Below, piece by piece: positions 1,102-54,918 of a stretch of DNA of 64,000 bases (its first letter is position 1; every line of letters begins with the position of its first letter). This DNA comes from a virus, in IMG/VR virus record IMGVR_UViG_3300027758_000008, positions 1-64,000 of that record. One strand, written 5' to 3'. The notes under the pieces are model-generated. The model did not search any database and had not been told where the DNA came from. It saw only the letters and a list, made by a program, of their open reading frames with translations. A program made the translations under genes and the position numbers.

Positions 1102-1140
1102 AACTGGTCAAACCACTAGACGCAATATTTATGGTATTGT
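1102..1140 (+). promoter_or_regulatory. FadR-like box + extended -10 promoter
   Basis: AACTGGTCAAACCACTA (1102-1118), 16 bp, TATTGT (1135-1140) preceded by TGG. Confidence 0.7.
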
Positions 1141-1160
1141 GGGGTTTTTGGGAGGGAAAC

Positions 1161-1442
1161 ATGAGCGGAACATTTACATTGGTGTCGGAGCAATTACCGC
1201 CTGAGCATGTGCCATTAATTGGCATCTCATTGGGGCCAAAACTTCACACAGTAATATTTGATGGGTGCAGGTTTATCGACAGAGCTAGCGGTAATGAGTT
1301 TGCCCTAGGCTGCATTATTGCTTGGTATGATATGAGCAAGCACGAAAAAAGCGACTGGCCTATTGTCGCTGGAAGTTTGCACGTTTGCGTAAACGCGCTT
1401 TTCTCAGCATTGGCTAACACTCAACATTCACAGAAAACCTAA
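1161..1442 (+). CDS. Accessory (moron) hypothetical protein, absent from unit B
   Basis: GGAGGG RBS and ATG at 1161; opposite strand to the tail operon; the equivalent site in B (~41067) is empty. Confidence 0.65.
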   Translation: MSGTFTLVSEQLPPEHVPLIGISLGPKLHTVIFDGCRFIDRASGNEFALGCIIAWYDMSKHEKSDWPIVAGSLHVCVNALFSALANTQHSQKT

Positions 1443-1812
1443 CCATCCAACGGCCTGAGCCTGTTCGCATGGGTCGGCCAACTGATTCGGCGGTGTTGAC
1501 TACTTTCATGGTGCCGCTATCATACGACAGGTTGTTAAATAGGTACGTTTGGCAACTTGTCGCATCATTTACCAGAGTCAGCCAATCATCGGGTAATTCT
1601 GACACGTCACTAAACAGCGTCACTTGAATCAGGTAACGGGCGGTATCTGTGTTTGACTCTCTGCCGGTAGCGTTAACCAAACAGATTGATACGCTATCAT
1701 TAGTAAACGGCAAAGCTGAATCATCCCAAAAAATAGCGTGATGATAGCCAGTAAGCACATTGTCTATTAGTGCAGTGCGGACAACTTCCGCTGGTAACGT
1801 GCTTGCGCTCAT
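1414..1812 (-). CDS. Putative tail terminator/completion protein
   Basis: Size and position upstream of tail tube; conserved in B. Confidence 0.6.
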   Translation of the reverse strand: MSASTLPAEVVRTALIDNVLTGYHHAIFWDDSALPFTNDSVSICLVNATGRESNTDTARYLIQVTLFSDVSELPDDWLTLVNDATSCQTYLFNNLSYDSGTMKVVNTAESVGRPMRTGSGRWMVRFSVNVEC

Positions 1813-2219
1813 TTGCTCATTTCCTCTCTAAATACTTCGTTTAGGTTGATGCTTTGCAATCCGTGTTCAATCCAGCGTGATTTTGCGTTAGGGTTTGTTA
1901 GTGCGCCACGCTTACCGGATGCGTCAGGGCCACGCGGAGACCAGTTATCATTGTAGTACAGCCAACCGGCATACGCTGTCGTGTGGTCGCCGCCATAGCT
2001 TAATGTGACAGACCATACACCACCCTCTCGAACAGGTGTGGTCACTTCCTTAGACTGCATCAAGTCGCCCGTATCCATCGGCACAAAGTAGTCAGAAGCT
2101 GTGCCAAGTTTCCACGCAGTCATGTAGCAGGCATCTTTAGCCTTAACCTGTAGCTCTTTGGTCCACGCATCCAGCTTGTTGTTAGCGTCCGTGTATGACT
2201 TACCTGGTTTGAATGGCAT
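1809..2219 (-). CDS. Neck/tail completion protein (HK97 gp10/minor capsid-like)
   Basis: VPMDTGDL...YA...NPNAKSRW motif pattern; position. Confidence 0.65.
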   Translation of the reverse strand: MPFKPGKSYTDANNKLDAWTKELQVKAKDACYMTAWKLGTASDYFVPMDTGDLMQSKEVTTPVREGGVWSVTLSYGGDHTTAYAGWLYYNDNWSPRGPDASGKRGALTNPNAKSRWIEHGLQSINLNEVFREEMSK

Positions 2220-2560
2220 TAGCCGGTCAACAACACATAATCTTTGCCGCCAACTAAAGGTGTAGCGGTTTCCACCTTAACAATCTTCTCAGCGCCTGAC
2301 ACCGGCGTTAAGTCTGCATGTTCGCCCACTGCAATCATATCGCCCTTCTGTGCACTGGCGTATTTGGTCACATAGGTTGTATTGGGCTGAAACTCTTCCT
2401 GTTCGTCATCACGGCGAATAGCGCCACCATCCTTAAACCTAGCGTCAAACGTAACAGGCGCATCCCAGCCGCCACCGTATGGGCTTGACGACGTGTCAAC
2501 AGTGGACTTGCGCCAAATGGTGACAGTCTCTTGTGGGAATTGGCCGATAATTGTGCTCAT
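2219..2560 (-). CDS. Putative head closure protein
   Basis: Position in the head-tail joining cluster; conserved in B. Confidence 0.6.
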   Translation of the reverse strand: MSTIIGQFPQETVTIWRKSTVDTSSSPYGGGWDAPVTFDARFKDGGAIRRDDEQEEFQPNTTYVTKYASAQKGDMIAVGEHADLTPVSGAEKIVKVETATPLVGGKDYVLLTG

Positions 2561-2916
2561 CCGCGTTGCACCTGTAAAGGATACGCACCACCCTGACCAA
2601 TAGCCGTTAACACACAGACTCCCGCGTCCATACCTTGAAGCAAATCAAGATATTGATTACCGGAGCCTTTGCTTGTGTCGAATGATACCGAGTCACCGGT
2701 AAAGCTAGACTGGCTGGAAAGTTGCCCGCCTGACTGCTGCACAATCATCGCCGCAGCGCCATACATCTTAGCTAATTTAGCTTGTGCGTCACTGTAGCCG
2801 CCTGTCGTGATACATGCGTCCGCTTCGTCCACCACATCAATAATCATTTGAATTGACGCATCTGACAGGCTGTTAGGCACAAAATCCCGAACCTCTGAAA
2901 CTGTTATCGTAGCCAT
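2557..2916 (-). CDS. Putative head-tail adaptor
   Basis: Helical ~120-aa protein first in the connector cluster; conserved in B. Confidence 0.6.
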   Translation of the reverse strand: MATITVSEVRDFVPNSLSDASIQMIIDVVDEADACITTGGYSDAQAKLAKMYGAAAMIVQQSGGQLSSQSSFTGDSVSFDTSKGSGNQYLDLLQGMDAGVCVLTAIGQGGAYPLQVQRG

Positions 2917-3002
2917 TGTATTTTCACTCTACCGTTACGCACGTAGCGTACTGTTGTTATGCCCTGGTTACGCAGATATTCGCGCAACGCTTCCCCTTTA
3001 GG

Positions 3003-4598
3003 TTAATTCAACTTTCTGCATATCGGACTATCAAAATAGACTGTAACATCCGTAGCACCCGTATGAGTGCGCAAAACAAACTGTGGTTGAATAGTGGTTT
3101 CGCCCCCTGATAGTGTGGAGACTACCATAGATGTTAGTATTCCTGTTATTTCCTGCCCCGCTGGTATTTCATCGGTGTAGTGATCCTCGTTAACTGTCTC
3201 GAAAATGTCGTTACCAATTTTCACAGTTACATTTGACAGCCCACTGTGACCAGCCACAACTTTAAATCTGCAAAATGCCACATAAACATCGCCAGACACA
3301 CCAGTAATTGATATGTCCTGCCTCATGTTTGTAACCTGCGTTTGCGAGCCAACATTACCGGATATAGTCACCGCCTGAGACTCTGTGCCATCACCGAAAG
3401 CATTAGAAACCTTTGACACTGTTACAGTAGCCCCTGAAACGTTACTGCCAACCGTCCAACTGTCCGCAACATTACCGCTAGTAGAGCCGCCGTCTGTTCC
3501 GGATGTTCCGGTTAATTGCGGATTAACAAAAAGATTATCGGATATTAGACCTTGCTGGTCGTTGGCGTTCTTGGCCGCTTTCAGGATTGCAGCACCTTGA
3601 GCAGAGCCTAAAACAACCGCACCCCACAAACTTAAATGAGTCCCGTCTGTGGTTGTGTCGTCATCCGCTGTAAAGTTTTCACCTGACTCAACATCAATGA
3701 TTACCCCGTCAATATCCAGTCCGCGCAAAGCTGCATTGTATGAACCCCTTAACGCCTTTTGCTCATCGGTCCATGGAAATGTTGCTGAGTCTGACTTCTC
3801 AGGCACGCCGTGGATAACCACAACGACTGCGCCGTAGTAAAATAAATTTCTTACAATCTCTTTAATATTTGAAATGTATTGCTCAACAGTTTCATTGGCG
3901 CTTACATCGTTTGTCCCAGCCTGCAAAGACACAACATCAGCAATGTTTGCGCCTATGGTAGTTATTCTCGCCAATATGTCAGAGGTTGTATCGCCGCCAA
4001 CGCCCTGATTATACCCATCTAGAAACCTTAACTTAGCGCCTACAGCGAGCTGAACGCCGTAGATTCTACTGAATGCCGCCGTGCTTGTTTCGCCCTCAGT
4101 GATAGAGTCCCCGACAAACATAATTGAACTGCCTGCATCCACCGCATTTACTGAGCCTCTGGTTACAGCGTTGCTAAAACTGGTAAAGGATAGGCCGCCC
4201 GTGCTAACAACACTCGCCACACCCCCAACCAACTGCACCTCGTATGGGCCGTCGGAGGCTTGGACTTTGATAGACTCGTCAGCGTCGAATGAATAATTCT
4301 TACCAGCGAAATAGCCCGATGCAGTAACATCTGCGATAGTGTCAGCGGTAAAATACTGATAGGTTCTGTCTGCCAGCTTAACCAAGCAATCACCATCTGA
4401 GCTAACGATAGCCACAAAGCTATTATTAGGACATAGGCAGTTAATTGTCGCGTTACCAGGATTATTAAGCGTTACCGATGACAGGTCAAAATAACCAGCC
4501 TGTGACACGGTGTAGCGGTCATCGTCGGTTACGTATTTGAAATTATTGCCGGTTGTGGAGCGCGGCATTTGCTCTAGGTTTTTCAGATTAAAGGCCAT
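3003..4598 (-). CDS. SGNH/GDSL hydrolase fused to a conserved N-terminal module (putative virion appendage)
   Basis: SGNH blocks GDSIT, GVGG, GTND, DGTH; first ~130 aa shared with 42805..44325. Confidence 0.75.
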   Translation of the reverse strand: MAFNLKNLEQMPRSTTGNNFKYVTDDDRYTVSQAGYFDLSSVTLNNPGNATINCLCPNNSFVAIVSSDGDCLVKLADRTYQYFTADTIADVTASGYFAGKNYSFDADESIKVQASDGPYEVQLVGGVASVVSTGGLSFTSFSNAVTRGSVNAVDAGSSIMFVGDSITEGETSTAAFSRIYGVQLAVGAKLRFLDGYNQGVGGDTTSDILARITTIGANIADVVSLQAGTNDVSANETVEQYISNIKEIVRNLFYYGAVVVVIHGVPEKSDSATFPWTDEQKALRGSYNAALRGLDIDGVIIDVESGENFTADDDTTTDGTHLSLWGAVVLGSAQGAAILKAAKNANDQQGLISDNLFVNPQLTGTSGTDGGSTSGNVADSWTVGSNVSGATVTVSKVSNAFGDGTESQAVTISGNVGSQTQVTNMRQDISITGVSGDVYVAFCRFKVVAGHSGLSNVTVKIGNDIFETVNEDHYTDEIPAGQEITGILTSMVVSTLSGGETTIQPQFVLRTHTGATDVTVYFDSPICRKLN

Positions 4599-5221
4599 TA
4601 CTGCCGCTCCTCCCATTCGAGTTGATAAAGAAATTCACTATCTGTCGTGCCGTTGATATTCGTAAACACCAGCAAGAAAGTATTCCCAGCCGCCACGCCT
4701 GACGCATTACCGCTTGCTGTGTAGCTTGAAGCCGCCCGACTACCGCCGCCCGATGTTGGCACAAGGTAGGACGTGCCTGTGCGCTTGGGTGCAGTTGTGC
4801 TGAATGCGGTTGCAATGCGTTTCTCAATCGTCACACCGCTTGTAGGGTGCGAATCCAAACCGCTAACAGATAGGTCGTTGTTAATCGGTGAAAGTTTGGT
4901 GCTTGTTACATCTGCCCACGAGCCGCCACTGATAGCCTCACTGCCGGTGAACGGGTAAACAATGTATTTGCGCCCACCAGCCCAGCCATTAATCAGGCGC
5001 AACTGTAGTTTTAGCGGGTAAACAGTTGTAAACCGATAGATGAGAATATCAGTATCAGCAATCGCATCTGCGCCGCTACAGTCGTCAAAGAACTTGAACT
5101 GTAAGTTAGCCTCAAAGCTTGATTGCTGATTATCTACAGCAAAGCGCGCAGTGTTTTTGTTTTGCGTGGTCAGCAGAAAGTCTGCCCACGCATTGGGAAT
5201 CAATCTATTCAGAATCGCCAT
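4598..5221 (-). CDS. Hypothetical (probably virion) protein
   Basis: Likely start MAILNRL at 5221 after AGAAGG; conserved in B. Confidence 0.65.
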   Translation of the reverse strand: MAILNRLIPNAWADFLLTTQNKNTARFAVDNQQSSFEANLQFKFFDDCSGADAIADTDILIYRFTTVYPLKLQLRLINGWAGGRKYIVYPFTGSEAISGGSWADVTSTKLSPINNDLSVSGLDSHPTSGVTIEKRIATAFSTTAPKRTGTSYLVPTSGGGSRAASSYTASGNASGVAAGNTFLLVFTNINGTTDSEFLYQLEWEERQ

Positions 5222-5375
5222 TGTTCGCCACCTTCTTACGTCTCGTGCGCTTAGGCTTTGGTGCTTCTTCTGCCTCTTTAGGATTGAATTTAGCGTCGAT
5301 GATTTTGTAACCCTGAGCACGTAACTCTTTCTTGCGTTCAGGCGTTACAGGGTGAGGCTCGTAAATGACTTTCAT
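5205..5375 (-). CDS. Small basic conserved protein (MKVIYEPHPV...)
   Basis: 56 aa; conserved in B with an in-frame 9-bp indel. Confidence 0.65.
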   Translation of the reverse strand: MKVIYEPHPVTPERKKELRAQGYKIIDAKFNPKEAEEAPKPKRTRRKKVANNGDSE

Positions 5376-5383
5376 AGCTGTCT

Positions 5384-5422
5384 CACTGGTTAGACCACTT
5401 GTTACGTACAGTTTACTATAAT
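5384..5422 (+). promoter_or_regulatory. FadR-like box + -10 promoter of moron array
   Basis: CACTGGTTAGACCACTT (5384-5400), 16 bp, TATAAT (5417-5422). Confidence 0.75.
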
Positions 5423-5454
5423 GGCTAGAGTTTAGGCAAATTTGGAGATTAACA

Positions 5455-5796
5455 ATGATTGGAAAGGACGTGACTGTGACGATTGGCGACAAGGAGCTTG
5501 ATTTTAATTTAAGCTCAGAGGTTATAGAGCCTATTGAATTTGAGTCGCAAGTAGCACAAGTAGGAAAGGGCTTCTCTTTTAACGCTGAAAGCACCGTCGA
5601 ATTTTCTGGTAGCGCTGAGTTTTCTGGAGTTGTAACCTATGATGACGGCATGGTAATGAAATTAAAAGGAATGAAAAGCACCGGCCCAAATCATTATTTT
5701 TCTTACAACTTCAAATGCGGGAGCATTTCAGTTAAGCGATACATGAAAACCAAATCAAAGCAGCCGCGAACGATTGCTGTTTGGCGTGAAATTTAA
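5455..5796 (+). CDS. Moron hypothetical protein flanked by 17-bp direct repeats
   Basis: TTAGGCAAATTTGGAGA at 5432-5448 and 5797-5813; gene absent in B. Confidence 0.65.
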   Translation: MIGKDVTVTIGDKELDFNLSSEVIEPIEFESQVAQVGKGFSFNAESTVEFSGSAEFSGVVTYDDGMVMKLKGMKSTGPNHYFSYNFKCGSISVKRYMKTKSKQPRTIAVWREI

Positions 5797-5818
5797 TTAG
5801 GCAAATTTGGAGAAGGGA

Positions 5819-6001
5819 ATGGAAAAGAAGAGAAAAATGTTCAAAAAGAAAAAAATAAACATAAAGGTCGCCGAAGCTCAATCGCGCTACTTTTTTGCAT
5901 TTGCTGTCGCTGACGCGATGTTCAAAAGCGAAGTATGTGCAGAGGCCGTTGCTCAAGGGGCGTTTTTTAGAACACTAGGCTACAAAGTGAGGGTTAAGTG
6001 A
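5819..6001 (+). CDS. Moron hypothetical protein
   Basis: RBS in the repeat; ends LGYKVRVK like B 45173..45322. Confidence 0.55.
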   Translation: MEKKRKMFKKKKINIKVAEAQSRYFFAFAVADAMFKSEVCAEAVAQGAFFRTLGYKVRVK

Positions 6002-6303
6002 TGTTTACATACATAGCAGTAAACGGCGCGGTAGTCGAAAATAATTACGGTGGCGGTTATGGCGGTGAGTGGATAAGCCCAATCGGCGGGAGGGGCGGCT
6101 CGTCCAACTTCGATGATGGGCAAAATCTTAACGGGGGATCGTGGAAGGCAATAGATGTTCCGTACTGGGAAAGGCGCGTCAAGCAGATTGGTAAGGGCAA
6201 GCGGCACTATTTTGCCCTTAATGGCTGGTGGCATTACATTGAGATTGATGACGCTCTACCGCCGCTAGTTAGTTGGTACATTGGGAGGGTAAGTGATGAT
6301 TAA
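5998..6303 (+). CDS. Gly-rich hypothetical protein, homolog of 45835..46140
   Basis: Shared VPYWE.RVKQIGKGKRHYF...WHYIE...LPPL. Confidence 0.65.
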   Translation: MMFTYIAVNGAVVENNYGGGYGGEWISPIGGRGGSSNFDDGQNLNGGSWKAIDVPYWERRVKQIGKGKRHYFALNGWWHYIEIDDALPPLVSWYIGRVSDD

Positions 6304-6604
6304 ATTAAACGCTATAGCAGCCATTGAACAATTCGAGAAATTCTGCGCTAGAGGTAGAGGTCACCTTGTAACAATAAAGAGGCCTGATGGAGAAAGTATC
6401 TGCCATCGCACTAATATTTTTATTATGACATTGAGTTGCAATTACAAAGGGAAGTATTCCGATGGCTCAATTTTTGGAAGGGTTGAATTTAATGCAGACT
6501 CAGAAAAGGGTGAAATAAATAAAATATTGCACGAAACATTCTCTGACATGAATAAAAGGATGAATGAATTTGACACGCCTGAAAAGAAGGATGTGTTCAC
6601 ATAA
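6293..6604 (+). CDS. Moron hypothetical protein
   Basis: GGGAGG RBS, overlapping start, AT-rich. Confidence 0.55.
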   Translation: MMIKLNAIAAIEQFEKFCARGRGHLVTIKRPDGESICHRTNIFIMTLSCNYKGKYSDGSIFGRVEFNADSEKGEINKILHETFSDMNKRMNEFDTPEKKDVFT

Positions 6605-6605
6605 C

Positions 6606-6634
6606 AAAAAGCCCCGCATAAGCAGGGCTTCTTT
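6606..6634. terminator. Intrinsic (probably bidirectional) terminator after capsid gene and moron array
   Basis: AAAAAGCCCCGC-ATAA-GCAGGGCTTCTTT; also present in B near 46125-46153. Confidence 0.75.
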
Positions 6635-6647
6635 ATCTTAACTAACC

Positions 6648-7607
6648 TTATGACTGGTCGCCAACAGTAAGCACCCCAGCAGTATGCTTGATGTCTGTTG
6701 CGACTTTATCCCAGTTAGTGCCGGTTGCAATTTCCGCATCGGTCGGAGATTTGCCGCCGTTGGTTTCATCCCACGCATAGCCCTTCAAGCCAAGACCAAA
6801 CGTGTAATCAACCTGCATTGTAGTTTCAATGCGCTGGTTGCCGTTAGTGGTCTCGATGTTGCTGATTACGTCGCCTGCATCATGAACTACTGCCGCACCT
6901 TCAACCAGTGAAAGCACTTTGTAGTCAGTGGTCGATACAGTCAGTGCTGGCGCATCGGTAACAACAACCATCTTGCCTAAGATATCCACAACGCGCACGT
7001 TTTGCGCTTGGAACAGCTGAGGCGTGTTAGTCAGGTTCTGACCAACCAAGTTGTGGTAAGTCGCACCATTCATAATCTGACAAACCAGATTGCCTGAGTG
7101 GTCACCAAACAGCGCATGAGCAGCGTTCATTGCTGAGTAGGTGACAGGGGCGGTCGCTGAAACGTCATTGGTAGCCGATGCCTGATTCTCGATAGCTGCA
7201 ACCAGTGCCGCAATAGCGGTGTTTAACTGGTCTTGCATCATAGCTTCAGCAAAGTTACGGCTGGCAACTTCGATACCGCGTGCGGTAGGTTGGCGCAACC
7301 AAGTAAGCTGTGAAGGCTCATAACGAATCGGGCCAAAGCCGCCAGCGATTTTAACGCTTGAGTGCTTCAACTGAGTCAGGTCAGTCGCAGACGCAGAAGA
7401 GTTAGACGCGTAACGGTCAACACGACGCTGCGCAGAGTGAATAGCCGCAAAGAATGATTCTTGCAGGAAGTCACCGTCGAAACCTTCTGTAGTCAAACGG
7501 ATTGCACCGGCAGACGCTTGGTTAAACTTATCAACCATCTGTGCCAGAGTTTCAATTGTGGCAGGCATGATATATTCGTTAAATACCTGCATATCTGATA
7601 AAGCCAT
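6648..7607 (-). CDS. Major capsid protein
   Basis: 319 aa following scaffold; strong terminator downstream; nearly identical in B. Confidence 0.85.
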   Translation of the reverse strand: MALSDMQVFNEYIMPATIETLAQMVDKFNQASAGAIRLTTEGFDGDFLQESFFAAIHSAQRRVDRYASNSSASATDLTQLKHSSVKIAGGFGPIRYEPSQLTWLRQPTARGIEVASRNFAEAMMQDQLNTAIAALVAAIENQASATNDVSATAPVTYSAMNAAHALFGDHSGNLVCQIMNGATYHNLVGQNLTNTPQLFQAQNVRVVDILGKMVVVTDAPALTVSTTDYKVLSLVEGAAVVHDAGDVISNIETTNGNQRIETTMQVDYTFGLGLKGYAWDETNGGKSPTDAEIATGTNWDKVATDIKHTAGVLTVGDQS

Positions 7608-7615
7608 AAATCACC

Positions 7616-8332
7616 TCAATTTGGTAAGTTAAATTTACTTGCAAAATAGGCAGCGCGACTATTCTTGTCGCCGCCAATGTCGGCCTTTGAGGTGGCACGG
7701 CCCCCGTTACCTGGCCCATTTAAAAGCCCGCCGCCGGTTGTAACGACAGTGGTTTTTAGTAATGGTGCAAAGCTGGCATCCTGTTTGATTTCCGCTTTGA
7801 ACTCTTCCAAACTCAATGATGTGGCACGGCCTTCATCATCAAGAAAAACTACTTTTCCGGTTTCCGCGTTAACGTCAATCCGGTCGGAGATAAGGCGCTT
7901 AAACGCTCTACCGCCTGTGTCTGTTGCCAATTCTGCCGCGAGGTCAGAAACTAACTCATTTCGTTTACCGGCTTTAATCTGGCCGGTCAATTCGTCGAGC
8001 TTTCCTGTTAACTCATTAATCCGCGATTCGCTGCGGGATTTAAGGTCGTCAATCTGCTCTTGATACTGCTTTTCGATTTCGGCAGCATCACCTTTTGTTC
8101 TTGCCTTCTCCATAGCTTCCGCTTTAGCCTTTTCGATAGCTTCCAGCTTCTGCGCTTCAAACTCACTTAATTGAGTCTGCGCTTGCTTCCACTTGCTGTC
8201 TAAATCGTTCGCGGTCTGCTTAACTTTCAGCATACCCTTATGGCTAAAACCTTCACCGTCCTCCACATATTGCTCTTTTGCGAAATCCGGTAATTCCTCG
8301 TATTGCTCTTTGGTTAGTTCTGACATTGGCAC
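7616..8332 (-). CDS. Capsid scaffolding protein
   Basis: Coiled-coil, Gly-rich C-terminus, between portal and capsid genes. Confidence 0.75.
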   Translation of the reverse strand: MPMSELTKEQYEELPDFAKEQYVEDGEGFSHKGMLKVKQTANDLDSKWKQAQTQLSEFEAQKLEAIEKAKAEAMEKARTKGDAAEIEKQYQEQIDDLKSRSESRINELTGKLDELTGQIKAGKRNELVSDLAAELATDTGGRAFKRLISDRIDVNAETGKVVFLDDEGRATSLSLEEFKAEIKQDASFAPLLKTTVVTTGGGLLNGPGNGGRATSKADIGGDKNSRAAYFASKFNLPN

Positions 8333-8335
8333 GGC

Positions 8336-9880
8336 CTATGTTTCTTGAGGCTCCACGGGAGTCTCTTCTTCTGGGATATTTTGTACCGATTGGTTTACGT
8401 TGTCAACTGGTCGGGCCACCGGTGCGTCTGCGGCTTCCATTTCCAATTCTTCAACGATTACGTCTATCTCTTCGCTAGTCCACCCACCTTTCTCAAGTTG
8501 GCGCATGAATTCTTTCTGGCTGATTTCGCGGTCAATGCGCAATTCACGCAACACGCGAACCTCATCGACAGTCAGTCGTGGCGTCGCAAAGTCGCGAGGC
8601 AAGTCAATGGATACTTCGCCACTACTGCCTTCAAACACCATGCAATATTCGATGACGCGAATAAATGCACTTTCGATACTGGTCGCCAATGATTCAAGCA
8701 TAGCATTCTGGTCGCTGGCATTAATGTCTGCCTCAGTCGCTGTCATGGTGTCAACGTCAGACTTAACTGCCCCACCCATCTCTGATATTTCTTTTTTGTT
8801 GTGCTCGAAATACCACTGGAAATCCGACATTTCAGCCGAAGCACTTTTAACGTCTACTGTCACGCCATCGGGGAGATTGTTTACTGAACCTGGACCTGTG
8901 GCGACGTATGCACGGCCATTGTTTGACTGCTTAAATAACTCAGCATCGCCCTCTTTCCACCCTTCAGTGTAGGTGGTAGGCGCTAAGTTACGCTGAGTCT
9001 CTTTGTAAGCAGCAGACACGCGATAGCGGTGCAAGGTCTTTAAGCAGACAGGGTAAATGTAGCCCATGCCGCACGGCAGCTTATGGTCCTTGATTTTCTC
9101 AAGTGACACGAATTCAGCAGGGATATACTTTAATGGTGCGCCACCAACCATCACATAGGAGCGTTCACCCTTCTGCTGTTTCTTGTTGCTGTTGTAAATG
9201 ATTTTCTGCTGGTAGTAATTGCCTTCGTCATCGAGCGCCAGGATCAAGTAAGATTCAATGTCGTCATGACTCATTGTCTCTTCGTCGAATTCCGTGCCGC
9301 GCTCAAGCAATGCGAGAAACGCCAACTGCGTCACGCCGTTACGCTTGCCGAATGCCCAGTTAACCACGTTCTTTCGCGAGTAGACTTTAATCTTTGCGCG
9401 AGGGTTCGCTGCGTCTGATTGCTCTTTGCTAACGTCGGTTAGGTCAACATCACCCAATCCGTTATAGTCAGCAGCCACGACACACCAGTTATCAACCAGT
9501 GAATCCGATGCGGCGACCTCCATCAACTCGTAAATCGAACAGCCGTTGCCGTCAGCATCTTCTTCAAGGTAATCAAGCGGAATGTCTGTTGCCGTATCAT
9601 CTATGCGCATCTTGCCAAGCAGTGAGCGTAGTGTCTTGGCTGGGTAATCATCAAATTCAGCGCCAGCGATAAATTCACGATAGCGGATAATCGCGTCATC
9701 TGTATCAGTGTCAACCTGTGACGGGTGCGGTAGGTAGGTGTAAGTCATGGACTTAACCCTGTCCTCACCTTGCAAACAATCCTCAGCAACTGACATTTGG
9801 AGCGCTGCGAATGGATAGTCTGGGTGAGATTCAATGCTCACCACTACCTTTGTTCTAATGCCATTGCTGATAATGTACAT
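8336..9880 (-). CDS. Portal protein (DUF4055-like)
   Basis: ~510 aa; YLPHP and TATEA motifs; acidic tail; position. Confidence 0.8.
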   Translation of the reverse strand: MYIISNGIRTKVVVSIESHPDYPFAALQMSVAEDCLQGEDRVKSMTYTYLPHPSQVDTDTDDAIIRYREFIAGAEFDDYPAKTLRSLLGKMRIDDTATDIPLDYLEEDADGNGCSIYELMEVAASDSLVDNWCVVAADYNGLGDVDLTDVSKEQSDAANPRAKIKVYSRKNVVNWAFGKRNGVTQLAFLALLERGTEFDEETMSHDDIESYLILALDDEGNYYQQKIIYNSNKKQQKGERSYVMVGGAPLKYIPAEFVSLEKIKDHKLPCGMGYIYPVCLKTLHRYRVSAAYKETQRNLAPTTYTEGWKEGDAELFKQSNNGRAYVATGPGSVNNLPDGVTVDVKSASAEMSDFQWYFEHNKKEISEMGGAVKSDVDTMTATEADINASDQNAMLESLATSIESAFIRVIEYCMVFEGSSGEVSIDLPRDFATPRLTVDEVRVLRELRIDREISQKEFMRQLEKGGWTSEEIDVIVEELEMEAADAPVARPVDNVNQSVQNIPEEETPVEPQET

Positions 9881-9914
9881 AATTAACCTTTACCTGTTTT
9901 GCTCCAATTTTAGC

Positions 9915-9931
9915 CACTGGTCTAACCACTT
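9915..9931. promoter_or_regulatory. FadR-like box upstream of portal gene
   Basis: CACTGGTCTAACCACTT; on the minus strand followed after 2 nt by TAAAAT; identical in B (49434-49450). Confidence 0.6.
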
Positions 9932-11030
9932 ACAAGCCCAATCGCTTAAATACTGTCGATTCCTCTTGCTCAAGCTCGTTTAATGTGATTGTGCGGCCTG
10001 TCATATCGGTGAATTTGGATAGCGATAATTTGCCATCGAGAAACAGTTTGGCCCTTGTGGTACCAAGCGATGATTCAACAAACCATCTAGGCTGTCTGCG
10101 TAACCATGCCTCGTGACTGGTGTCACTTCTAACCGTTGTCGGGTCGAATGCGTCTTTGTCACGCTTGCCTCTGTACTTTGGCTTACCATCCGTGCTGGCT
10201 TCTTTCTTCTCGAATGCTTCTTTTGCTGCCGGTCCTGATTTGCCGCCTATGGCAACCTGTTGGCCGGTTAACTCGAATCCTTCTGGACCGTAGATTAGTG
10301 TTGAGCGGCAGTTTGGGTGCAACGGAGGAATCGGTAACTTCGGGTCGTCAGCCTTAAATCGTTTCTTTGAGTTAGTCCGACAAATTAAACTAGTCCTGTT
10401 ATCCCACACGGCGACAAATATCGCCTCCTGATAGTATTTAGGATGCGCAGATACGTTAGCCCGCCTTGCCTGCTGTACGTAATGCGTGAAAGCTGTTCTG
10501 GCCAATGACTCAGCGCGGGTTTTCAGTGTACCGTCAAACTCAGCACGTATATTCTTTAGCACCTGGTTGACTGTCTCGGCGCGTGAATAGCCCTGTCGAA
10601 CCATTGACATAATGCGTTGATTTCTTCCAGCGTTATTGCCAGTAATGAATTCATCCCAGAAACCAGCCTGCTTTGACTGCTCCATGACAATCATTTGCTC
10701 ACCGATGAACGATAGAATCTCATTCTTTGCCGGTGGCGTTAGCTCAGTGTTGCGCAGCATGTAACGCACCTCATACAATGCCGCCTCTTGCATATCCTTG
10801 GTGTAATCTGCCCAGCCTGAATTCAACTCGATAATGCGTTGTATGCGCTTCTCGATAGTCTCAAGCTGCTTTGGTGTGCGTGGCAAGCCGCCGTCGATGA
10901 TGAGCAGCCTGATTAGCCGGTACGTTTCCTCTAACCCTGGATAAACAGACGCGTTGATATACCCTGAATTTAACCTATCAAGGTATACCTCGTGCATTAA
11001 TTGTGCGTCTAGGTTTATTGTGATTGTCAT
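9930..11030 (-). CDS. Head morphogenesis protein (SPP1 gp7 / Mu F family)
   Basis: ARTA...D.RTS..C...PPLHPNCRS motif. Confidence 0.85.
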   Translation of the reverse strand: MTITINLDAQLMHEVYLDRLNSGYINASVYPGLEETYRLIRLLIIDGGLPRTPKQLETIEKRIQRIIELNSGWADYTKDMQEAALYEVRYMLRNTELTPPAKNEILSFIGEQMIVMEQSKQAGFWDEFITGNNAGRNQRIMSMVRQGYSRAETVNQVLKNIRAEFDGTLKTRAESLARTAFTHYVQQARRANVSAHPKYYQEAIFVAVWDNRTSLICRTNSKKRFKADDPKLPIPPLHPNCRSTLIYGPEGFELTGQQVAIGGKSGPAAKEAFEKKEASTDGKPKYRGKRDKDAFDPTTVRSDTSHEAWLRRQPRWFVESSLGTTRAKLFLDGKLSLSKFTDMTGRTITLNELEQEESTVFKRLGL

Positions 11031-16187: not shown

Positions 16188-17089
16188 TTCCTCGCACTCC
16201 AACTCTTCTTAGCCTTATGTATCGCCGTAAATGCTTCGATATTATCGTTAACCACGCGATACGCGTATTGCGGGTGACAACCTACCGCATTGGATAGTGA
16301 CAGCACCGTGCGATGTTTACCCGTTTTAGCCTCTGCGATGATTGCAGGTGCTATTGTGCCGTATCGTTTCATTACTCTTCCTCACAGTCCAGTATCTCGG
16401 CGCCGTACCAATAACTGTCAACGTACTGTGCTTTCGCATGTGCCATTGCTTTGGCGTCATCCGCATTATCAGCCTCAACCCACAATTCATCTTCCATCAT
16501 CATTTGTGTTTTTACTAAATATTTCATACCCTACCCCCATTCTCTGCGTATTTGCGCATAAGTTCTGGATGATTGAAAATCTCAAATGCTACCTTGTGCG
16601 TTTTCAACCCAGTTACCTGCGCGATTTTAATGTAACTCCGTGCGCCGTCTTGTAGTGCGGCGCTCACTTTACGGTAGTGTTTGTTCATATGAAGTCAGAC
16701 CAATCATAACCAACCGGCATTTCTTCCGACATGACGATATGGCTATAAATTTCATCCATGGCGACTTGGTTAAACTTACGCTCCACCATCCCTGATGTTG
16801 ACTCATCCGCGAACGACTTTTCTACCAACTGACGCGCAAATGTATCATCTTCAATCATCGAGCCGATGACAGTGTAATCAGACACAATATGCGTATTCCC
16901 GCAGTAACGCCAGGTCAGCGTTTTCTGGTCTGCAACGCGCTCTGCCAGCTTCTCGGCGATATACCATAGATTTTCATTGCTGATGCTGTCATAAGTCATT
17001 GGCGTTGATTCTGGCTTGTCTGGTAGCTGTCTGTCGTATGCGGTTTGGTGTTGCTCGAAATTCATCTTCATTTCCTCCATTAGTTTCAC
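16184..17089 (-). other. Run of four small coupled ORFs (16184-16372, 16372-16527, 16524-16688, 16685-17089), two with HTH-like segments
   Basis: Overlapping stop/start codons; conserved in B 53628-54557. Confidence 0.6.
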
Positions 17090-17091
17090 CC

Positions 17092-17130
17092 ATTATAACG
17101 GGTTAATTTTGTTTTGTGGTTTGACCAGTT
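17092..17130 (-). promoter_or_regulatory. FadR-like box + -10 promoter (leftward)
   Basis: Minus strand AACTGGTCAAACCACAA (17130-17114), 16 bp, TATAAT (17097-17092). Confidence 0.75.
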
Positions 17131-17328
17131 AGTCTAAGTCTGGAATAACTACAAATCGAACAATATAGCCGTCGCTGCGACTAAACCATTCACCTTCTAC
17201 AACTTCAAAATTTCCATTTGTGACGGTACTTCCTGTCAGTATAAAGTTATCACCGTGGGCATGATGAAAAATATCACCATGCTTTACATCGTCGTCAGGA
17301 CCTAAAACTCTAGCTTTAACTTCCGGCA

Positions 17329-20054: not shown

Positions 20055-20071
20055 ATCTGGTCGTACCACTT
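20055..20071. promoter_or_regulatory. Possible FadR-like box upstream of leftward early promoter
   Basis: ATCTGGTCGTACCACTT; degenerate in B (TGGC), and lies within an ORF. Confidence 0.35.
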
Positions 20072-25498: not shown

Positions 25499-25527
25499 TT
25501 GACACAATAAACCATAAAGCATAGGAT
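25499..25527 (+). promoter_or_regulatory. Sigma70-type early promoter
   Basis: TTGACA-17-TAGGAT. Confidence 0.7.
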
Positions 25528-27320: not shown

Positions 27321-27350
27321 TAAGGCAAGCCGGCTCAACAGGGCCGGCTC

Positions 27351-27389
27351 CACTGGTCAAACCACCTTGGCGCGTAGAGATGGTATATT
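27351..27389 (+). promoter_or_regulatory. FadR-like box + extended -10 promoter
   Basis: CACTGGTCAAACCACCT (27351-27367), 16 bp, TATATT (27384-27389) preceded by TGG; follows a GC hairpin. Confidence 0.75.
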
Positions 27390-27411
27390 GTAGGAAATGG
27401 AGGGGGATAAA

Positions 27412-28119
27412 ATGATTGAAATAAAAAACAGATTTACAGGGGGAATTATCCACAGTGGTGATTTCCAAAGCGTTAAAGAATGTTTGCTTGATGCTATTAA
27501 AAATGACGCAAACCTACGGGGCGCAAACCTACGGGGCGCAGACCTACGGTACGCAAACCTAGAGGACGCAAACCTACGGGGCGCAGACCTACGGTACGCA
27601 AACCTAGAGGACGCAAACCTACTGGGCGCAAACCTACTGGACGCAGACCTAGGGGACGCAGACCTACGGTACGCAGACCTACTGGGCGCAAACCTACGGT
27701 ACGCAGACCTAGGGGACGCAGACCTAGGGGGCGCAAACCTAGGGGGCGCAAACCTAGGGGACGCAGACCTAGGGGGCGCAAACCTAGGGGGCGCAAACCT
27801 ACGGTACGCAAACCTACGGGGCGCAGACCTACGGTACGCAAACCTAGGGGACGCAGACCTACGTTGGTGTGCTGGCAATAAATGCGAAATCAAATCACTA
27901 TGGTTTAGTGATGTATACCCAATAACCTATACATCGGAATATATGCAAATTGGCTGTGAGCGTCACAAAATTGCCGATTGGTGGGAATTTGACGACAAGC
28001 GCATTTTAAAAATGGATGGTAAAACTGCATTGAAGTTTTGGCGGGAAAATAAAGATTTGATTAAGCAGATTGTTGACGCCAATCCAGCCAAGCCTACAGG
28101 CAAGGAGTCTGACAAATGA
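27412..28119 (+). CDS. Pentapeptide repeat protein
   Basis: 24 A[N/D]Lxx repeats. Confidence 0.9.
   Translation: MIEIKNRFTGGIIHSGDFQSVKECLLDAIKNDANLRGANLRGADLRYANLEDANLRGADLRYANLEDANLLGANLLDADLGDADLRYADLLGANLRYADLGDADLGGANLGGANLGDADLGGANLGGANLRYANLRGADLRYANLGDADLRWCAGNKCEIKSLWFSDVYPITYTSEYMQIGCERHKIADWWEFDDKRILKMDGKTALKFWRENKDLIKQIVDANPAKPTGKESDK
27508..27867 (+). repeat. 24 x 15-bp tandem repeat (GCA RAC CTA nnn nnn)
   Basis: Counted from the sequence; codons at positions 1-3 are near-invariant. Confidence 0.9.
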
Positions 28120-29370: not shown

Positions 29371-29640
29371 ATGAATATGGAGCCGTTTAATTTTTGCATA
29401 CAATGGATGGTGTACGATTATTTGCCAACCCTGAAAACCGGAGACTTCCTACCTGGTCAACTTTGCATGCCCGATAGGATAGGCGTTGAGCGAAAGACGT
29501 ATCGAGAAGTGTTACGCGTTCTGGATTTCCATGGAGTTATAAGTGTCAAGCATGGCAAACCCACAAAGTTCATAAGCCTTAACAAGCCTGGACTGCTGTA
29601 CGTCATGGAGCGTAAAGGCTTAACTGGTCAAACCACATAA
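29371..29640 (+). CDS. Truncated FadR-like (GntR family) winged-helix regulator, 89 aa
   Basis: IGVERKTYREVLRVLDFHGVISVKHGKPTKF aligns with remembered E. coli FadR [31 protein letters not shown]; no C-terminal acyl-CoA domain. Confidence 0.8.
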   Translation: MNMEPFNFCIQWMVYDYLPTLKTGDFLPGQLCMPDRIGVERKTYREVLRVLDFHGVISVKHGKPTKFISLNKPGLLYVMERKGLTGQTT

Positions 29641-29660
29641 TCGAAAAATGGTGGTATATT
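29622..29660 (+). promoter_or_regulatory. FadR-like box + extended -10 promoter at the 3' end of the fadR-like gene
   Basis: AACTGGTCAAACCACAT (29622-29638), 16 bp, TATATT (29655-29660) preceded by TGG. Confidence 0.75.
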
Positions 29661-29708
29661 AACCACACTAACAACACCGCAGCAGTATCGCGGATAACGG
29701 AGATACTC

Positions 29709-41024: not shown

Positions 41025-41063
41025 AACTGGTCAAACCACTAGACGCAATATTTATGGTATTGT
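41025..41063 (+). promoter_or_regulatory. FadR-like box promoter, no moron downstream
   Basis: Identical to 1102-1140. Confidence 0.65.
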
Positions 41064-45101: not shown

Positions 45102-45140
45102 CACTGGTTAGACCACTTGTTACGTACAGTTTACTATAAT
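45102..45140 (+). promoter_or_regulatory. FadR-like box + TATAAT promoter of moron array B
   Basis: Identical to 5384-5422. Confidence 0.75.
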
Positions 45141-47851: not shown

Positions 47852-47854
47852 GGC

Positions 47855-49399: not shown

Positions 49400-49448
49400 A
49401 ATTAACCTTTACTCGTTTTGCTCCAATTTTAGCCACTGGTCTAACCAC

Positions 49449-50549
49449 TTACAAGCCCAATCGCTTAAATACTGTCGATTCCTCTTGCTCAAGCTCGTTT
49501 AATGTGATTGTGCGTCCTGTCATATCCGTGAATTTGGATAGCGATAATTTACCGTCAAGAAACAATTTAGCCCTTGTGGTGCCAAGCGATGATTCAACAA
49601 ACCATCTAGGCTGTCTGCGCAACCATGCCTCGTGGCTGGTATCGCTTCTAACTGTTGTCGGGTCGAATGCGTCTTTGTCGCGCTTGCCTCGATACTTGGG
49701 TTTGCCATCTGTGCGGGCTTCTTTCTTCTCAAACGCCTCTTTTGCTGCCGGTCCTGATTTACCGCCTATGGCAACCTGCTGACCTGTTAGCTCGAATCCT
49801 TCGGGCCCATAGATTAGTGTGCTACGACAAAAATAGTGGAGAGGAGGAACCGGTAACTTCGGGTCATCAGCCTTAAACCGTTTTTTAGAATTGTTGCGAC
49901 ATATCAAACTAGTCCGATTATCCCACACAGCAACGAATATCGCTTCCTGATAGTACTTAGGGTGCGCAGATACATTGGCTCGTCTCGCCTGTTGTACGTA
50001 ATGCGTGAAGGCTGTTCTGGCTAATGACTCAGCGCGGGTTTTCAGTGTGCCGTCAAACTCAGCGCGGATATTCTTTATCACCTGATTAACTGTCTCGGCG
50101 CGTGAATAGCCCTGTCGAACCATTGACATAATGCGCTGATTGCGTCCGGCGTTATTACCAGTGATGAATTCATCCCAGAAGCCAGCCTGCTTTGACTGCT
50201 CCATGACAATCATTTGCTCGCCGATAAACGATAGGATTTCATTTCTCGCCGGTGGCGTTAGCTCAGTATTGCGAAGCATGTAACGCACTTCATACAATGC
50301 CGCCTCTTGCATATCCTTGGTGTAATCGGCCCAGCCTGAGTTCAATTCGATGATGCGTTGTATGCGCTTCTCGATAGTCTCAAGCTGTTTTGGCGTGCGT
50401 GGTAAGCCGCCGTCAAGAATAAGCAGCCTGATTAACCGGTACGTTTCCTCTAACCCTGGATACACAGACGCGTTGATATACCCTGAATTTAACCTATCAA
50501 GGTATACCTCGTGCATTAATTGTGCGTCTAGGTTTATTGTGATTGTCAT
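49449..50549 (-). CDS. Head morphogenesis protein B
   Basis: Homolog of 9930..11030 (PPLHYFCRS). Confidence 0.85.
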   Translation of the reverse strand: MTITINLDAQLMHEVYLDRLNSGYINASVYPGLEETYRLIRLLILDGGLPRTPKQLETIEKRIQRIIELNSGWADYTKDMQEAALYEVRYMLRNTELTPPARNEILSFIGEQMIVMEQSKQAGFWDEFITGNNAGRNQRIMSMVRQGYSRAETVNQVIKNIRAEFDGTLKTRAESLARTAFTHYVQQARRANVSAHPKYYQEAIFVAVWDNRTSLICRNNSKKRFKADDPKLPVPPLHYFCRSTLIYGPEGFELTGQQVAIGGKSGPAAKEAFEKKEARTDGKPKYRGKRDKDAFDPTTVRSDTSHEAWLRRQPRWFVESSLGTTRAKLFLDGKLSLSKFTDMTGRTITLNELEQEESTVFKRLGL

Positions 50550-51928: not shown

Positions 51929-52625
51929 ACTTTGCGCCCTTACTTAAGTTGTCTTTAGCCCATAATGGCTGTAGATTATCTAAAGCGTTTATAACTTTTG
52001 GATCTGTTTCACCCTCTGAAATAAAGACAGATACGGGCTTTATATGGTCAATATGCCATTCTCCGTGATTTTTCCAGCTCATCCCCTCAGTGAACTTTGA
52101 TTCCATGTTTGCTCTCAACTCATCTTTTGAGTATCCAAGCTCTAATTCTGTTTTGGTTTTCTTCTTTCTGCCAGTTATTAGAATTATTCTTGCAAGAAGT
52201 TTTCTGCACAATATGTAAGGCTTGTTGTCTGGGTTTGCATTGAATTTTCTAGAGTATCTTCTAGATATAGACCTCCTTTTCTCAGGATTGTCACTAGCCC
52301 ATTTAGCCGCGTACTCTATCTTTTTTTGTTTCGCATTTTGATATTCTTTTTGTCTGCAACCTGGATTGTCCCTTCTCCATTTTGCCGCCCTTTCTATTGC
52401 TGCCTGTTTGTTTTCTTGGTAGTACTTCTTTGACTTCTCTCTGTATTCAGGGTCTCTTTCCAGCGCCCTTTTGTATAAAACATCATAACCTATCTCTGCC
52501 GCCTTTTTGTTGTTATACGAGTTCCTGCAAGACTTGCAGTGCGACATTTTGCCTGATTTTTTTGATTTGCAATTATGGAAGTCATCGAGTGACTTGATGG
52601 TTTTACATTTTGTGCATTGTTTCAT
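51915..52625 (-). CDS. HNH homing-endonuclease-like protein
   Basis: N-terminal CxxC..CxxC; WHIDHIKP...NLQPLWAKDNLSK; inserted between terS and terL. Confidence 0.82.
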   Translation of the reverse strand: MKQCTKCKTIKSLDDFHNCKSKKSGKMSHCKSCRNSYNNKKAAEIGYDVLYKRALERDPEYREKSKKYYQENKQAAIERAAKWRRDNPGCRQKEYQNAKQKKIEYAAKWASDNPEKRRSISRRYSRKFNANPDNKPYILCRKLLARIILITGRKKKTKTELELGYSKDELRANMESKFTEGMSWKNHGEWHIDHIKPVSVFISEGETDPKVINALDNLQPLWAKDNLSKGAKYDAE

Positions 52626-52658
52626 GTGACACCTCTGCTAAAGGTTAGCTTGAAGGGA

Positions 52659-52741
52659 TTGCGGCAACCACTAGCAAGGTGGATTTCGTCTGGCCGGACT
52701 AGCCGCAACTTTGATTATACTTACTTGTGTTTATTTCTCAA
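52659..52741 (-). promoter_or_regulatory. HNH promoter and structured leader
   Basis: TTGAGA-16-TATAAT (52741-52714); three-way junction closed by TTGCGGC/GCCGCAA. Confidence 0.5.
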
Positions 52742-53143
52742 TGCTTCAAGCACAGCTTGGCTGTTGTCTTTTGGTGACATAGTACCATCGGATGATTTGT
52801 GGTCGATTTCCTGCTTGGCTGAATGGTGCTTGCTTGCCATGCGCTCAGCAGCCCACTTGTAAGCATCCATCATCACTTTTGCAGCTTGCGGCTCAATCAT
52901 GCCGCCTTCAATCATTTCAGCGATATCAATCATACGGTCAGCGTGAGCAAAACCAGCAGCTTCTCTCGCACTTGCGTATTGTGCCCAAAACTCAGGCTTT
53001 CCAACTATCCAGCGGCACACAGTAGACGTAGACGGCTTTGATTCTATACGGCAGTACTCGCGCAATGATTTACCGCCAGCGATATGCTCACATATCTCTT
53101 TCGCTATTTCATCTGAGTAAATTGTAGGTCTGCCACCGGCCAT
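52721..53143 (-). CDS. terS: Terminase small subunit B (Sf6 gp1-like)
   Basis: GRPT.YS.E.A..IC..I..G.SL...C....P..STV.RW...F..QY..ARE...D.YKW. Confidence 0.82.
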   Translation of the reverse strand: MAGGRPTIYSDEIAKEICEHIAGGKSLREYCRIESKPSTSTVCRWIVGKPEFWAQYASAREAAGFAHADRMIDIAEMIEGGMIEPQAAKVMMDAYKWAAERMASKHHSAKQEIDHKSSDGTMSPKDNSQAVLEALRNKHK

Positions 53144-54879
53144 ATAATCAACACCGTTAATTAGTCAGCCTTAAATATACCACATGATAGGATAAAAAAA
53201 AGCCCTGCGGATAACAGGGCAACTGGAGGGGAAGAAACAAAATGATTTACTCACTAACACCATAGCGGGTTAGTTGTGTGGTGTCAATCATTAACCACTA
53301 ACGGCTGATAACTAACACCTACCGGCAACTGCATAAAGTCCAGTTCATATTCGCTATACATCCATTGTTGAAATGCGTGCTCGGCTTCTTGGAGATTGCG
53401 TGCGTCGTATATGTCGCACGAGTACTCCTTGCCGCTGATTGTTGTAGATGCGCGGTAGTTCACGACAACAACCCCCCAACCCAGCATAAACAGCCACACA
53501 GCCCACCCGAAACACGTCGCCGCAACATTACCTTTCGTCTGCTCGATATACTCACCCTATGCAAGCTCAAGCGATGCCCAGGCTATACCGGCGAATGTGA
53601 CTACCATGTATGTGTAATAGAATTCGTTCATTTCCTCGCCCTCCAACTCTTCTTAGCTTTATGTATCGCTGTAAACGCTTCGATATTGTCGTTTACCACA
53701 CGATACGCGTATTGTGGGTGACAGCCTACCGCATTCGATAATGACAGCACCGTGCGATGTTTACCCGTTTTCGCCTCTGCGATGATTGCAGGGGCTATTG
53801 TGCCGTATCGTTTCATTCCTCTTCCTCACAGTCCAGTATCTCTGCGTCGTACCAATAACTGTCAACGTACTGTGCTTCCGCATGTGCCATTGCTTTTGCG
53901 TCATCCGCATTATCAGCCTCAACCCACAATTCATCTTCCATCATCATTTGTGTTTTTACTAAATATTTCACACCCTACCCCCATTCTCTGCGTATTTGCG
54001 CATAAGTTCCGGATGATTGAAAATCTCAAATGCTACCTTGTGCGTTTTCAATCCCGTTACCTGCGCGATTTTAATGTAGCTACGTGCGCCGTCTTGTAGT
54101 GCGGCGCTCACTTTGCGGTAGTGTTTGTTCATAGAAAGTCTGACCAATCATAACCAACCGGCATTTCTTCAGACGTAACGATATGATTATAAATCTCGTC
54201 TTTCGCCAACTTGTCGAATAGCTCTTGATTCAACTGCCCGATATCAGTGCCAGCCATTGATATTGCAATCAGCCTGCGCATTTCTTCCGACTCGCACATA
54301 GAGCCAATAACGGTTCCTCGTGACACGATGTGAGTGTTATTGCAGTATCTCCACTCCATCGATTTACCATCTGCAACGCGCTCTGCCAGCCTCTCGGCGA
54401 TATACCATAGGTTATCATTGCTGATACTGTCATAAGTCAGTAGCGTTGCTTCTGGCTCGTCTGGTAACTGTCTGTCGTATGCGGTTTGCAAGTTTGTGAA
54501 TTTTAAGCCGGTCATAATTAAAGCCACCTCTTTTCGCCGTTGGTGAAGTGAATGCAAACTTCCTTCCCTTCCTTCATCCAGCGCATAAAATTAAATTCAT
54601 CTTCCAGCAAATCTGTGCCGGAGTACATTGGCGACTCTGTAGCATCGCTATCATCGCATTCGTACCACCTTTCGCCACAGCATGGACAATAGCCACTTTT
54701 TCCGCCTTCAAAATCCCCAACAAGGAATAGCAACTTTTCATTAGCTTCATGCGACGAGTTAGCCTCAATAATAACGTGACGAGTAATGCCGTCATCCTCG
54801 TCAAAATCAAAGTGACCGCCGCTGTTGTTTTGCGTAAAAGTATAAAACGCCATTTTCATCCCCTCCATTAGTTTCACCC

Positions 54880-54918
54880 ATTATAACGGGTTAATTTTGT
54901 TTTGTGGTTTGACCAGTT
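54880..54918 (-). promoter_or_regulatory. FadR-like box + TATAAT promoter (leftward)
   Basis: Identical to 17092-17130 although the flanking genes differ. Confidence 0.75.

Follow-up and report, generated by a model that had tools for sequence, protein, structure and literature searches.

FadR-type operator boxes in place of the -35 element in promoters of uncultured phages may tie phage gene expression to host lipid status

Introduction

The DNA analysed here, called the window throughout, is a stretch of 64,000 nt from the start of a virus record 73,523 bp long (IMG/VR IMGVR_UViG_3300027758_000008), and its element of interest is a 17-bp box that recurs upstream of phage genes and resembles the operator of the fatty-acid regulator FadR. 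Self-comparison resolved the record into a tandem pair of related phage genomes, A (1-39923) and B (from 39924 onwards), which are mosaic variants lying head to tail in a record of approximately 1.84 genome lengths. The structural genes of A and B are about 87-96% identical at the nucleotide level and the early and replication regions are largely unrelated. The A+B joint could stem from a tandem or concatemeric molecule, or else the assembly may have crossed from one strain to another. The genes of A include those for a portal protein, a primase, a helicase, a RecE-like exonuclease and a small Cro-like helix-turn-helix protein, as well as an 89-aa protein with a FadR-type DNA-binding domain (mini-FadR) that is discussed below. 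The sequencing runs containing this DNA are labelled as marine sediment metagenomes, with no RNA run among them.

According to PMC9329746, the Escherichia coli FadR site is a 17-bp palindrome, aaCTGGTCnGACC(T/A)Gtt, and FadR acts as a repressor at most of its known targets, repression sites overlapping the transcription start and activation sites lying upstream of the -35 element. The gel-shift oligonucleotides for E. coli fabA, E. coli fabB and Shewanella fabA (PMC4537474, Table 2) have the 17-mer followed after 18 nt by TATCCT, TATTGT and TAATCT, respectively. Reading these hexamers as -10 elements is our own interpretation; in the E. coli genome the fabA ATG lies 33 nt past TATCCT.

Results

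A directional box stands at a fixed distance ahead of the -10 hexamer

The core of the box, TGGTNNNACCA, occurs 11 times in the window against an expectation of 0.88 (100 dinucleotide shuffles, maximum 4, none reaching 11), and the whole contig contains 13. Every one of these cores has C on both flanks in one orientation and the box therefore has a direction. The original prediction, made from the sequence of the window, listed eight 17-mers and proposed that each lies exactly 16 nt ahead of a -10 hexamer, in the same orientation and without a -35 element. We found all eight 17-mers where they had been placed (1102-1118, 5384-5400, 17130-17114 on the minus strand, 27351-27367, 29622-29638, 41025-41041, 45102-45118 and 54918-54902 on the minus strand), and the spacing, orientation and missing -35 held at 8/8. 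The box thus stands in place of the -35 element at a fixed distance and orientation, and we refer to this arrangement as class 1. The -10 hexamers are, in site order, TATTGT, TATAAT, TATAAT, TATATT, TATATT, TATTGT, TATAAT and TATAAT; TGG precedes the TATTGT and TATATT hexamers, and by the criterion of TGn directly before TAnnnT the -10 element is extended at five of the eight sites. Downstream of seven sites there is a GGAG-type ribosome site with an ATG 20-48 nt away, the exception being 41025, which has no open reading frame (ORF) behind it.

A scan for the motif together with its spacing against shuffled sequence (300 shuffles per genome) likewise bore out the proposed geometry: the box followed at 16 or 17 nt by TAnnnT is present five times in A (shuffled mean 0.030) and five times in B (shuffled mean 0.013), the A and B copies being mutually non-independent because the contig consists of two mosaic genomes in tandem that are roughly 93% identical; contigs of other phages, described below, supply independent support. 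Three further cores in the window (9918, 20058 and 49437) have the same C flanks and no -10 hexamer at 16 or 17 nt. A TTGACC within the box was considered as a minus-strand -35 element and rejected, the nearest -10 being only 12 nt away.

The arrangement recurs in other phages

An exact-word scan of IMG/VR returned two relatives, one a close mosaic relative (G001) and the other a complete genome of 43,104 bp with terminal repeats (G002), in which 13 cores were found against 0.40 expected, eight of them with the promoter layout. When IMG/VR was searched with a pattern for the box plus a TG-extended -10 element (AACTGGTNNNACCACN{15,16}TGNTANNNT), we obtained 68 matches in 61 stretches on 55 contigs, whereas with the spacing offset by 10 nt, as a control, 18 contigs were matched once each. 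At least two cores were present in 39 of the 60 loci tabulated. Five further genomes were fetched, three with terminal repeats and two estimated to be 98% complete, and the nine genomes then compared (A, B, G001, G002 and G004-G008) contain 70 cores in total, 46 of them with the promoter layout, at 4-13 boxes per genome. The same architecture recurs in dozens of uncultured relatives.

Statistics for class 1 were drawn from the six non-redundant genomes, that is, those that are not close kin of A. Of their 34 class-1 sites, 27 have a 17-nt spacing and 7 a 16-nt one; 27 carry TG ahead of the hexamer, 33 have no -35 match better than 3/6, and 30 are followed by a Shine-Dalgarno sequence and start codon. 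The -10 hexamers average 4.3/6 matches to consensus, with TAGGCT and TATGGT occurring four times each. Between phages the spacer sequence varies and the box, the distance, the TG/-10 element and the ribosome site are conserved. An unrelated cultured phage, the Pseudoalteromonas podovirus vB_PspP-H6/1 (KX257490.2), has AACTGGTCAAACCACAC, 17 nt, TGgTAGGAT, a Shine-Dalgarno sequence and ATG before gp51 (33958-34021), and a one-mismatch copy at 22904 on the minus strand before gp27. This podovirus is a possible laboratory system.

The box matches the FadR operator and its two half-sites differ

The consensus of the box in the six genomes is AACTGGTCAGACCA(C/G)TT, which corresponds to the FadR palindrome given in PMC9329746. 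Positions 1-3, 8, 10 and 15-17 lay outside our search pattern and nevertheless match the FadR consensus; because the agreement extends to positions that were not searched for, the proposal that the box is a FadR-type operator is supported. In the window the most frequent box centre is CAA, with A in place of the consensus G at position 10, and C at position 15.

Across the six genomes, the 34 class-1 boxes yield the consensus AACTGGTCAGACCACTT, compared with AACTGGTCAGACCAGTT for the 19 boxes outside class 1. In class 1, C at position 15 (ACCAC rather than ACCAG) is found in 26/34 promoter-proximal half-sites vs 2/34 distal ones, and symmetry prevails among boxes that lack the promoter layout, 15/19 of which have G at position 15. 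This C-for-G exchange in the promoter-proximal half-site is a new feature that the original prediction missed. At two IMG/VR loci (L140, at about 5803, and L183, at about 3063) one GTGGT...ACCAC box, AAGTGGTnnnACCACTT, lies between divergent TG-extended promoters with 17 nt on each side. Taken together, the half-site rule and the shared divergent boxes suggest that the polymerase imposes a constraint.

A second placement within the promoter spacer

When the offsets of -10-like hexamers after the core were plotted as a histogram, 31 cases fell at 19/20 nt and 14 at 2 nt, both standing out from a background of about 2. In the 2-nt group the spacer of a TTGnnn-(16-18)-TAnnnT promoter is taken up by the box, and such sites, which we call class 2, often precede the portal gene (A, B, G001, G005 and G007). 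Within the window one lies before the portal gene at 9935-9907 on the minus strand, and the sequence at 1125-1097 on the minus strand is probably another; a class-2 role there would explain why B keeps the 41025 box. Judged from sequence, class 2 appears to be a repressor-type position and a second placement that the original prediction did not see. It is less secure than class 1 because the T at offset 2 belongs to the flank of the box itself.

Mini-FadR has a FadR-type DNA-binding domain

The original prediction also invoked a phage-encoded mini-FadR, and such a protein exists: it comprises a FadR-type winged helix without a ligand domain, and its gene belongs to the operon headed by the 27351 promoter. 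The Pfam GntR model scored 20.3 bits, under its cut-off of 27. A PDB sequence search ranked FadR proteins of Vibrio and E. coli in its first six places (E=8.6e-6), and the best NCBIfam models are two FadR equivalogs (TIGR02812/NF003444, E=2.7e-8, positions 26-73), followed by GlcC at 9.5e-5; as a full-length FadR it falls short, with 33.8 bits against a cut-off of 249. The FadR_C acyl-CoA domain (PF07840) had no match anywhere in the contig. A model built from a 12-row alignment had a predicted local distance difference test (pLDDT) score of 86 and its ten best Foldseek matches were FadR chains, whereas a single-sequence model had a pLDDT of 40 and the predicted homodimer a score of 0.01. On the basis of these profile and model matches the fold class is that of the FadR DNA-binding domain. 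Seven DNA-contact residues of FadR are listed in PMC4259882; mini-FadR keeps R45, T47, R49, H65 and the wing GKPTK.

Homologues of mini-FadR were absent from B, G001, G002 and G004-G008, leaving it in one of the nine genomes, and from 60 further loci. Its relatives amount to four proteins at E<=1e-10 among 1.84 billion representatives; none was found among longer proteins at E<=0.001, and an alignment of the mini-family found none in viral_contigs.

Promoters and genes of the window

The boxes, their promoters and the genes behind them are collected in Table 1. Three promoter islands (27350-27405, 29614-29662 and 17063-17134) are 96-100% identical between A and B within otherwise unrelated DNA, the first being 100% identical to 64405-64460 of genome B. 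Identical islands in unrelated early regions suggest that module exchange occurs at box promoters.

Table 1. Box-associated promoters and neighbouring genes in the window
Feature	Position	Strand	Description
Class-1 promoter	1102..1140	+	17-mer AACTGGTCAAACCACTA, 16-nt spacer, TGg-TATTGT (1135-1140)
93-aa ORF behind GGAGG	1161..1442	+	Predicted target of the 1102 promoter; antisense within the tail-gene block; absent from B; no family match
Candidate class-2 promoter	1097..1125	-	TTGCGT (1125-1120), 17-nt spacer with the 1102 box, TAGAAT (1102-1097); ahead of a 138-aa gene (651-1067)
Class-1 promoter	5384..5422	+	CACTGGTTAGACCACTT, 16 nt, TATAAT; predicted to drive four small plus-strand ORFs (5455-6604) inside the minus-strand structural block
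Class-2 promoter	9907..9935	-	TTGTAA (9935-9930), 17-nt spacer holding box 9915-9931, TAAAAT (9912-9907); 26 nt ahead of the portal gene start (8336-9880)
Class-1 promoter	17092..17130	-	AACTGGTCAAACCACAA, 16 nt, TATAAT; predicted to drive a 134-aa gene (16685-17071) and the leftward operon
Box without -10 at 16/17 nt	20055..20071	+	ATCTGGTCGTACCACTT; kept in G001 and G008 with a different centre
Class-1 promoter	27351..27389	+	CACTGGTCAAACCACCT, 16 nt, TGg-TATATT; heads operon 27412-29640
Pentapeptide-repeat protein, first gene of operon	27412..28119	+	PF00805, E=4.1e-40
Mini-FadR gene, 89 aa	29371..29640	+	Predicted FadR-type winged helix and linker helix, no ligand domain; last codons (GLTGQTT) form the 29622 box
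Class-1 promoter	29622..29660	+	AACTGGTCAAACCACAT, 16 nt, TGg-TATATT; predicted to drive 29709-29885 and 29980-30603
Class-1 promoter, B copy of 1102	41025..41063	+	No ORF behind; leftward TTGCGT-17-TAGAAT (41048-41020) kept
Class-1 promoter, B copy of 5384	45102..45140	+	Ahead of ORF starting at 45173
Class-2 portal promoter, B copy	49426..49454	-	Box 49434-49450
Class-1 promoter, B copy of 17130	54880..54918	-	Ahead of gene ending at 54518

PHROGs and Pfam gave no match for most of the box-driven genes. The 93-aa opposite-strand ORF lies in about 270 bp (1145-1415) that are present in A and missing from B between two tail-module genes, and the region looks like an inserted accessory gene. 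The pentapeptide-repeat gene contains a repeat array at 27505-27863 with approximately 24 copies of a 15-bp unit; pentapeptide-repeat proteins are a class of DNA mimics. Behind the 29622 promoter, 29709-29885 encodes a 58-aa ORF with a long hydrophobic stretch and 29980-30603 a 207-aa coiled-coil-looking protein, neither with a family match, and the two may constitute a lysis cassette. The large structural-region proteins at 3003-4616 and 11030-12490 have lipase/esterase-like domains (PHROGs) and are probably tail-fibre esterases.

The divergent region that separates the Cro-like and exonuclease genes holds a boxless consensus sigma-70 promoter (TTGACA-17-TAGGAT, 25499-25527, plus strand), probably an early promoter, and the phage thus has a separate, self-sufficient promoter class. 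An 892-aa ORF was considered as a T7-like RNA polymerase and rejected, as it is the primase. Scans with Rfam and for tRNAs found no family and no tRNA. The A portal is at most 37% identical to portals of cultured Vibrio, Pseudoalteromonas and Alteromonas phages, and cultured phages yielded no megablast match to 1-12000. In a search for the host, the portal protein and a portal alignment against genome_contigs and the portal against viral_contigs gave zero matches.

Discussion

We favor, with confidence a little above even, the possibility that the boxes are operators of a dimeric FadR-type winged-helix protein, most likely a putative FadR of the host, set in two fixed promoter registers of which class 1 would be activating, by analogy, and class 2 repressing. 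At class-1 promoters the 17-bp operator would occupy about -45 to -29, ending 16 nt (in the window) or mostly 17 nt (in the relatives) before a -10 element that is usually TG-extended and often weak, with no -35 element; the bound protein would help sigma-70 RNA polymerase to start, as FadR does at fabA and fabB, and long-chain acyl-CoA, by releasing FadR, would shut these promoters off. Having ACCAC instead of ACCAG in the proximal half-site presumably suits the polymerase. At class-2 promoters, which would have the operator in their 17-bp spacer and serve structural genes such as the portal gene, the effect of this protein would be repression. Mini-FadR, which would be made from a class-1 operon and has no acyl-CoA domain, could occupy the boxes whatever the lipid status.

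The observation on which the original prediction was built has thus been confirmed, and its interpretation is partly supported. The class-1 layout is close to that of the fabA/fabB activation sites and may be the layout of known FadR-activated promoters drawn 1-2 bp tighter. As for the reader, the prediction had named host FadR and/or the phage mini-FadR. The latter does not stand as a general reader, being absent from B, from eight of the nine genomes and from the 60 loci, and host FadR is the likeliest candidate. No protein family is common to all nine box-bearing genomes; the widest is TerS-like and present in seven, MotA, AsiA, Mor and C not having been searched for by name. G002 and B have only four families in common (helicase-like, head morphogenesis, portal and scaffold). 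The lack of a common phage factor, the restriction of mini-FadR to one genome and the presence of the box in an unrelated podovirus make a host protein, most simply FadR, the likeliest reader. A figure legend in PMC11170926 names a FadR among host proteins of a Pseudoalteromonas strain.

Several observations weigh against this model. The phage operator lies 1-2 bp nearer the -10 element than in fabA/fabB, and A at position 10 together with C at position 15 makes the right half-site of the window boxes weak. Six cultured phages of Vibrio, Alteromonas or Pseudoalteromonas, chosen by tblastn/blastn matches to the portal, capsid or terminase genes of this family, had no boxes, which indicates that the trait is not general among marine gammaproteobacterial phages. 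Mini-FadR does not have R35, T44 and T46, nor the W60/F74/W75 triad reported as needed for binding, and the alignment behind its model included full-length FadR-like rows that bias it towards a FadR-like fold. A divergent small phage protein could also escape clustering at the level of BLAST, and our Pfam scan of 94 small proteins from G002 and B covers the best 25 of 43 families.

A further difficulty is that TG-extended -10 elements can work without a -35 element, such that the box may be purely repressive. It is conceivable, though we consider it unlikely, that host FadR or mini-FadR acts only as a repressor, blocking self-sufficient TG-extended promoters at the -35 position until long-chain acyl-CoA frees FadR, in which case the phage would be fatty-acid-inducible. 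Consistent with this idea are the TG extension in 27/34 class-1 promoters, the two perfect TATAAT hexamers in the window (B copies aside) and the classical repressor position of the class-2 sites, and, according to PMC9329746, repression is what FadR does at most known targets. The same source, however, places repression sites over the transcription start and activation sites upstream of the -35 element, and the phage boxes at the -35 position share a single fixed register and orientation. Moreover, many of the -10 hexamers are poor, and the proximal ACCAC rule and the divergent shared boxes point to coupling with the polymerase.

We consider it rather improbable that the boxes are read by a phage regulator of an unrecognised family, different or highly diverged in each phage and CI- or Mor/C-like, with the likeness to the FadR site being convergent or owed to a shared GntR-type fold. 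Genome A does encode a FadR-type domain, as judged by its profile matches, small stand-alone relatives of it exist (the four proteins mentioned above), an atlas contains a 92-aa GntR cluster with phage members that is a lead only, these phages have several helix-turn-helix proteins (among the best 25 of 43 Pfam families for G002 and B), and boxless early sigma-70 promoters such as 25499-25527 are available to express such a factor. Against this are the confinement of mini-FadR to A and the failure to find any family common to the nine genomes, and unrelated proteins would hardly account for an identical 15-17 bp site in phages whose early genes are unrelated. The high A/B identity of the islands in otherwise unrelated DNA could alternatively suggest that these 50-70 bp are conserved mainly as recombination linkers or DNA-level signals at module borders, their promoter features being secondary. 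This we regard as highly improbable, since distant relatives keep only the box, the spacing, the TG/-10 element and the ribosome site, with a different spacer sequence, and no Rfam family matched.

Returning to host FadR as the reader, a broader and more tentative version of the model, which we regard as possible and rather doubtful, is that FadR serves as a master switch for a broad set of uncultured marine phages. Bound at low acyl-CoA, it would keep class-1 operons (accessory, early and packaging) on and internal class-2 promoters (portal and other structural genes) off, long-chain acyl-CoA would reverse both, and some phages would add a ligand-blind FadR domain to override or lock the switch, possibly reprogramming the fad/fab regulon of the host. 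If host FadR does read the boxes, most transcription units of these phages would be wired directly into a metabolite sensor of the host, through sites of both activating and repressing type; the case would be a clear one, and phage development in marine sediments and seawater would be linked to fatty-acid availability. It would also explain how short promoter islands stay identical while neighbouring genes are swapped, and mini-FadR would be a ready-made ligand-blind competitor of FadR. Our literature search, conducted mostly at the level of abstracts, found no description of FadR boxes in phage promoters.

The closest known counterparts are the fabA/fabB promoters of E. coli, Vibrio and Shewanella, which share with the phage promoters an identical consensus, a 17-bp FadR-type operator just upstream of a sigma-70 -10 element without a good -35, and the succession of operator, -10 element, short leader and ATG within about 80 bp. 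They differ in that the phage operator is 16-17 nt from the -10 element rather than 18, the phage -10 is TG-extended, no FabR site is present, and the promoters are many per genome and drive phage genes; the phage proximal half-site is ACCAC, whereas fabA/fabB have a degenerate CTGATC...ACTTGTT. The putative class-2 boxes resemble FadR-repressed fad promoters in overlapping the core promoter, although they fill the -35/-10 spacer in a fixed register, while the sites described in PMC9329746 overlap the transcription start.

At the level of the protein, mini-FadR resembles FadR of the GntR family in its predicted winged helix, R45/T47/R49, wing HGKPTK and linker helix, and departs from it in having 89 aa, no FadR_C and changes at R35, T44, T46, W60 and W75.

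There is precedent for replacing the -35 element in the middle promoters of T4, which depend on MotA, and in those of Mu that depend on Mor/C, where the box of the factor stands at a fixed distance from a sigma-70 -10 element. In those systems the factors are phage-encoded and conserved with their boxes, whereas here no conserved phage factor was found and the box equals the site of a host regulator. Precedent for a host protein reading phage operators comes from LexA in CTXphi or GIL01, where the repressor of the host stress response acts at one or a few promoters. The arrangement described here would differ in that the regulator senses a metabolite, has 4-13 sites in each genome and probably both activates and represses.

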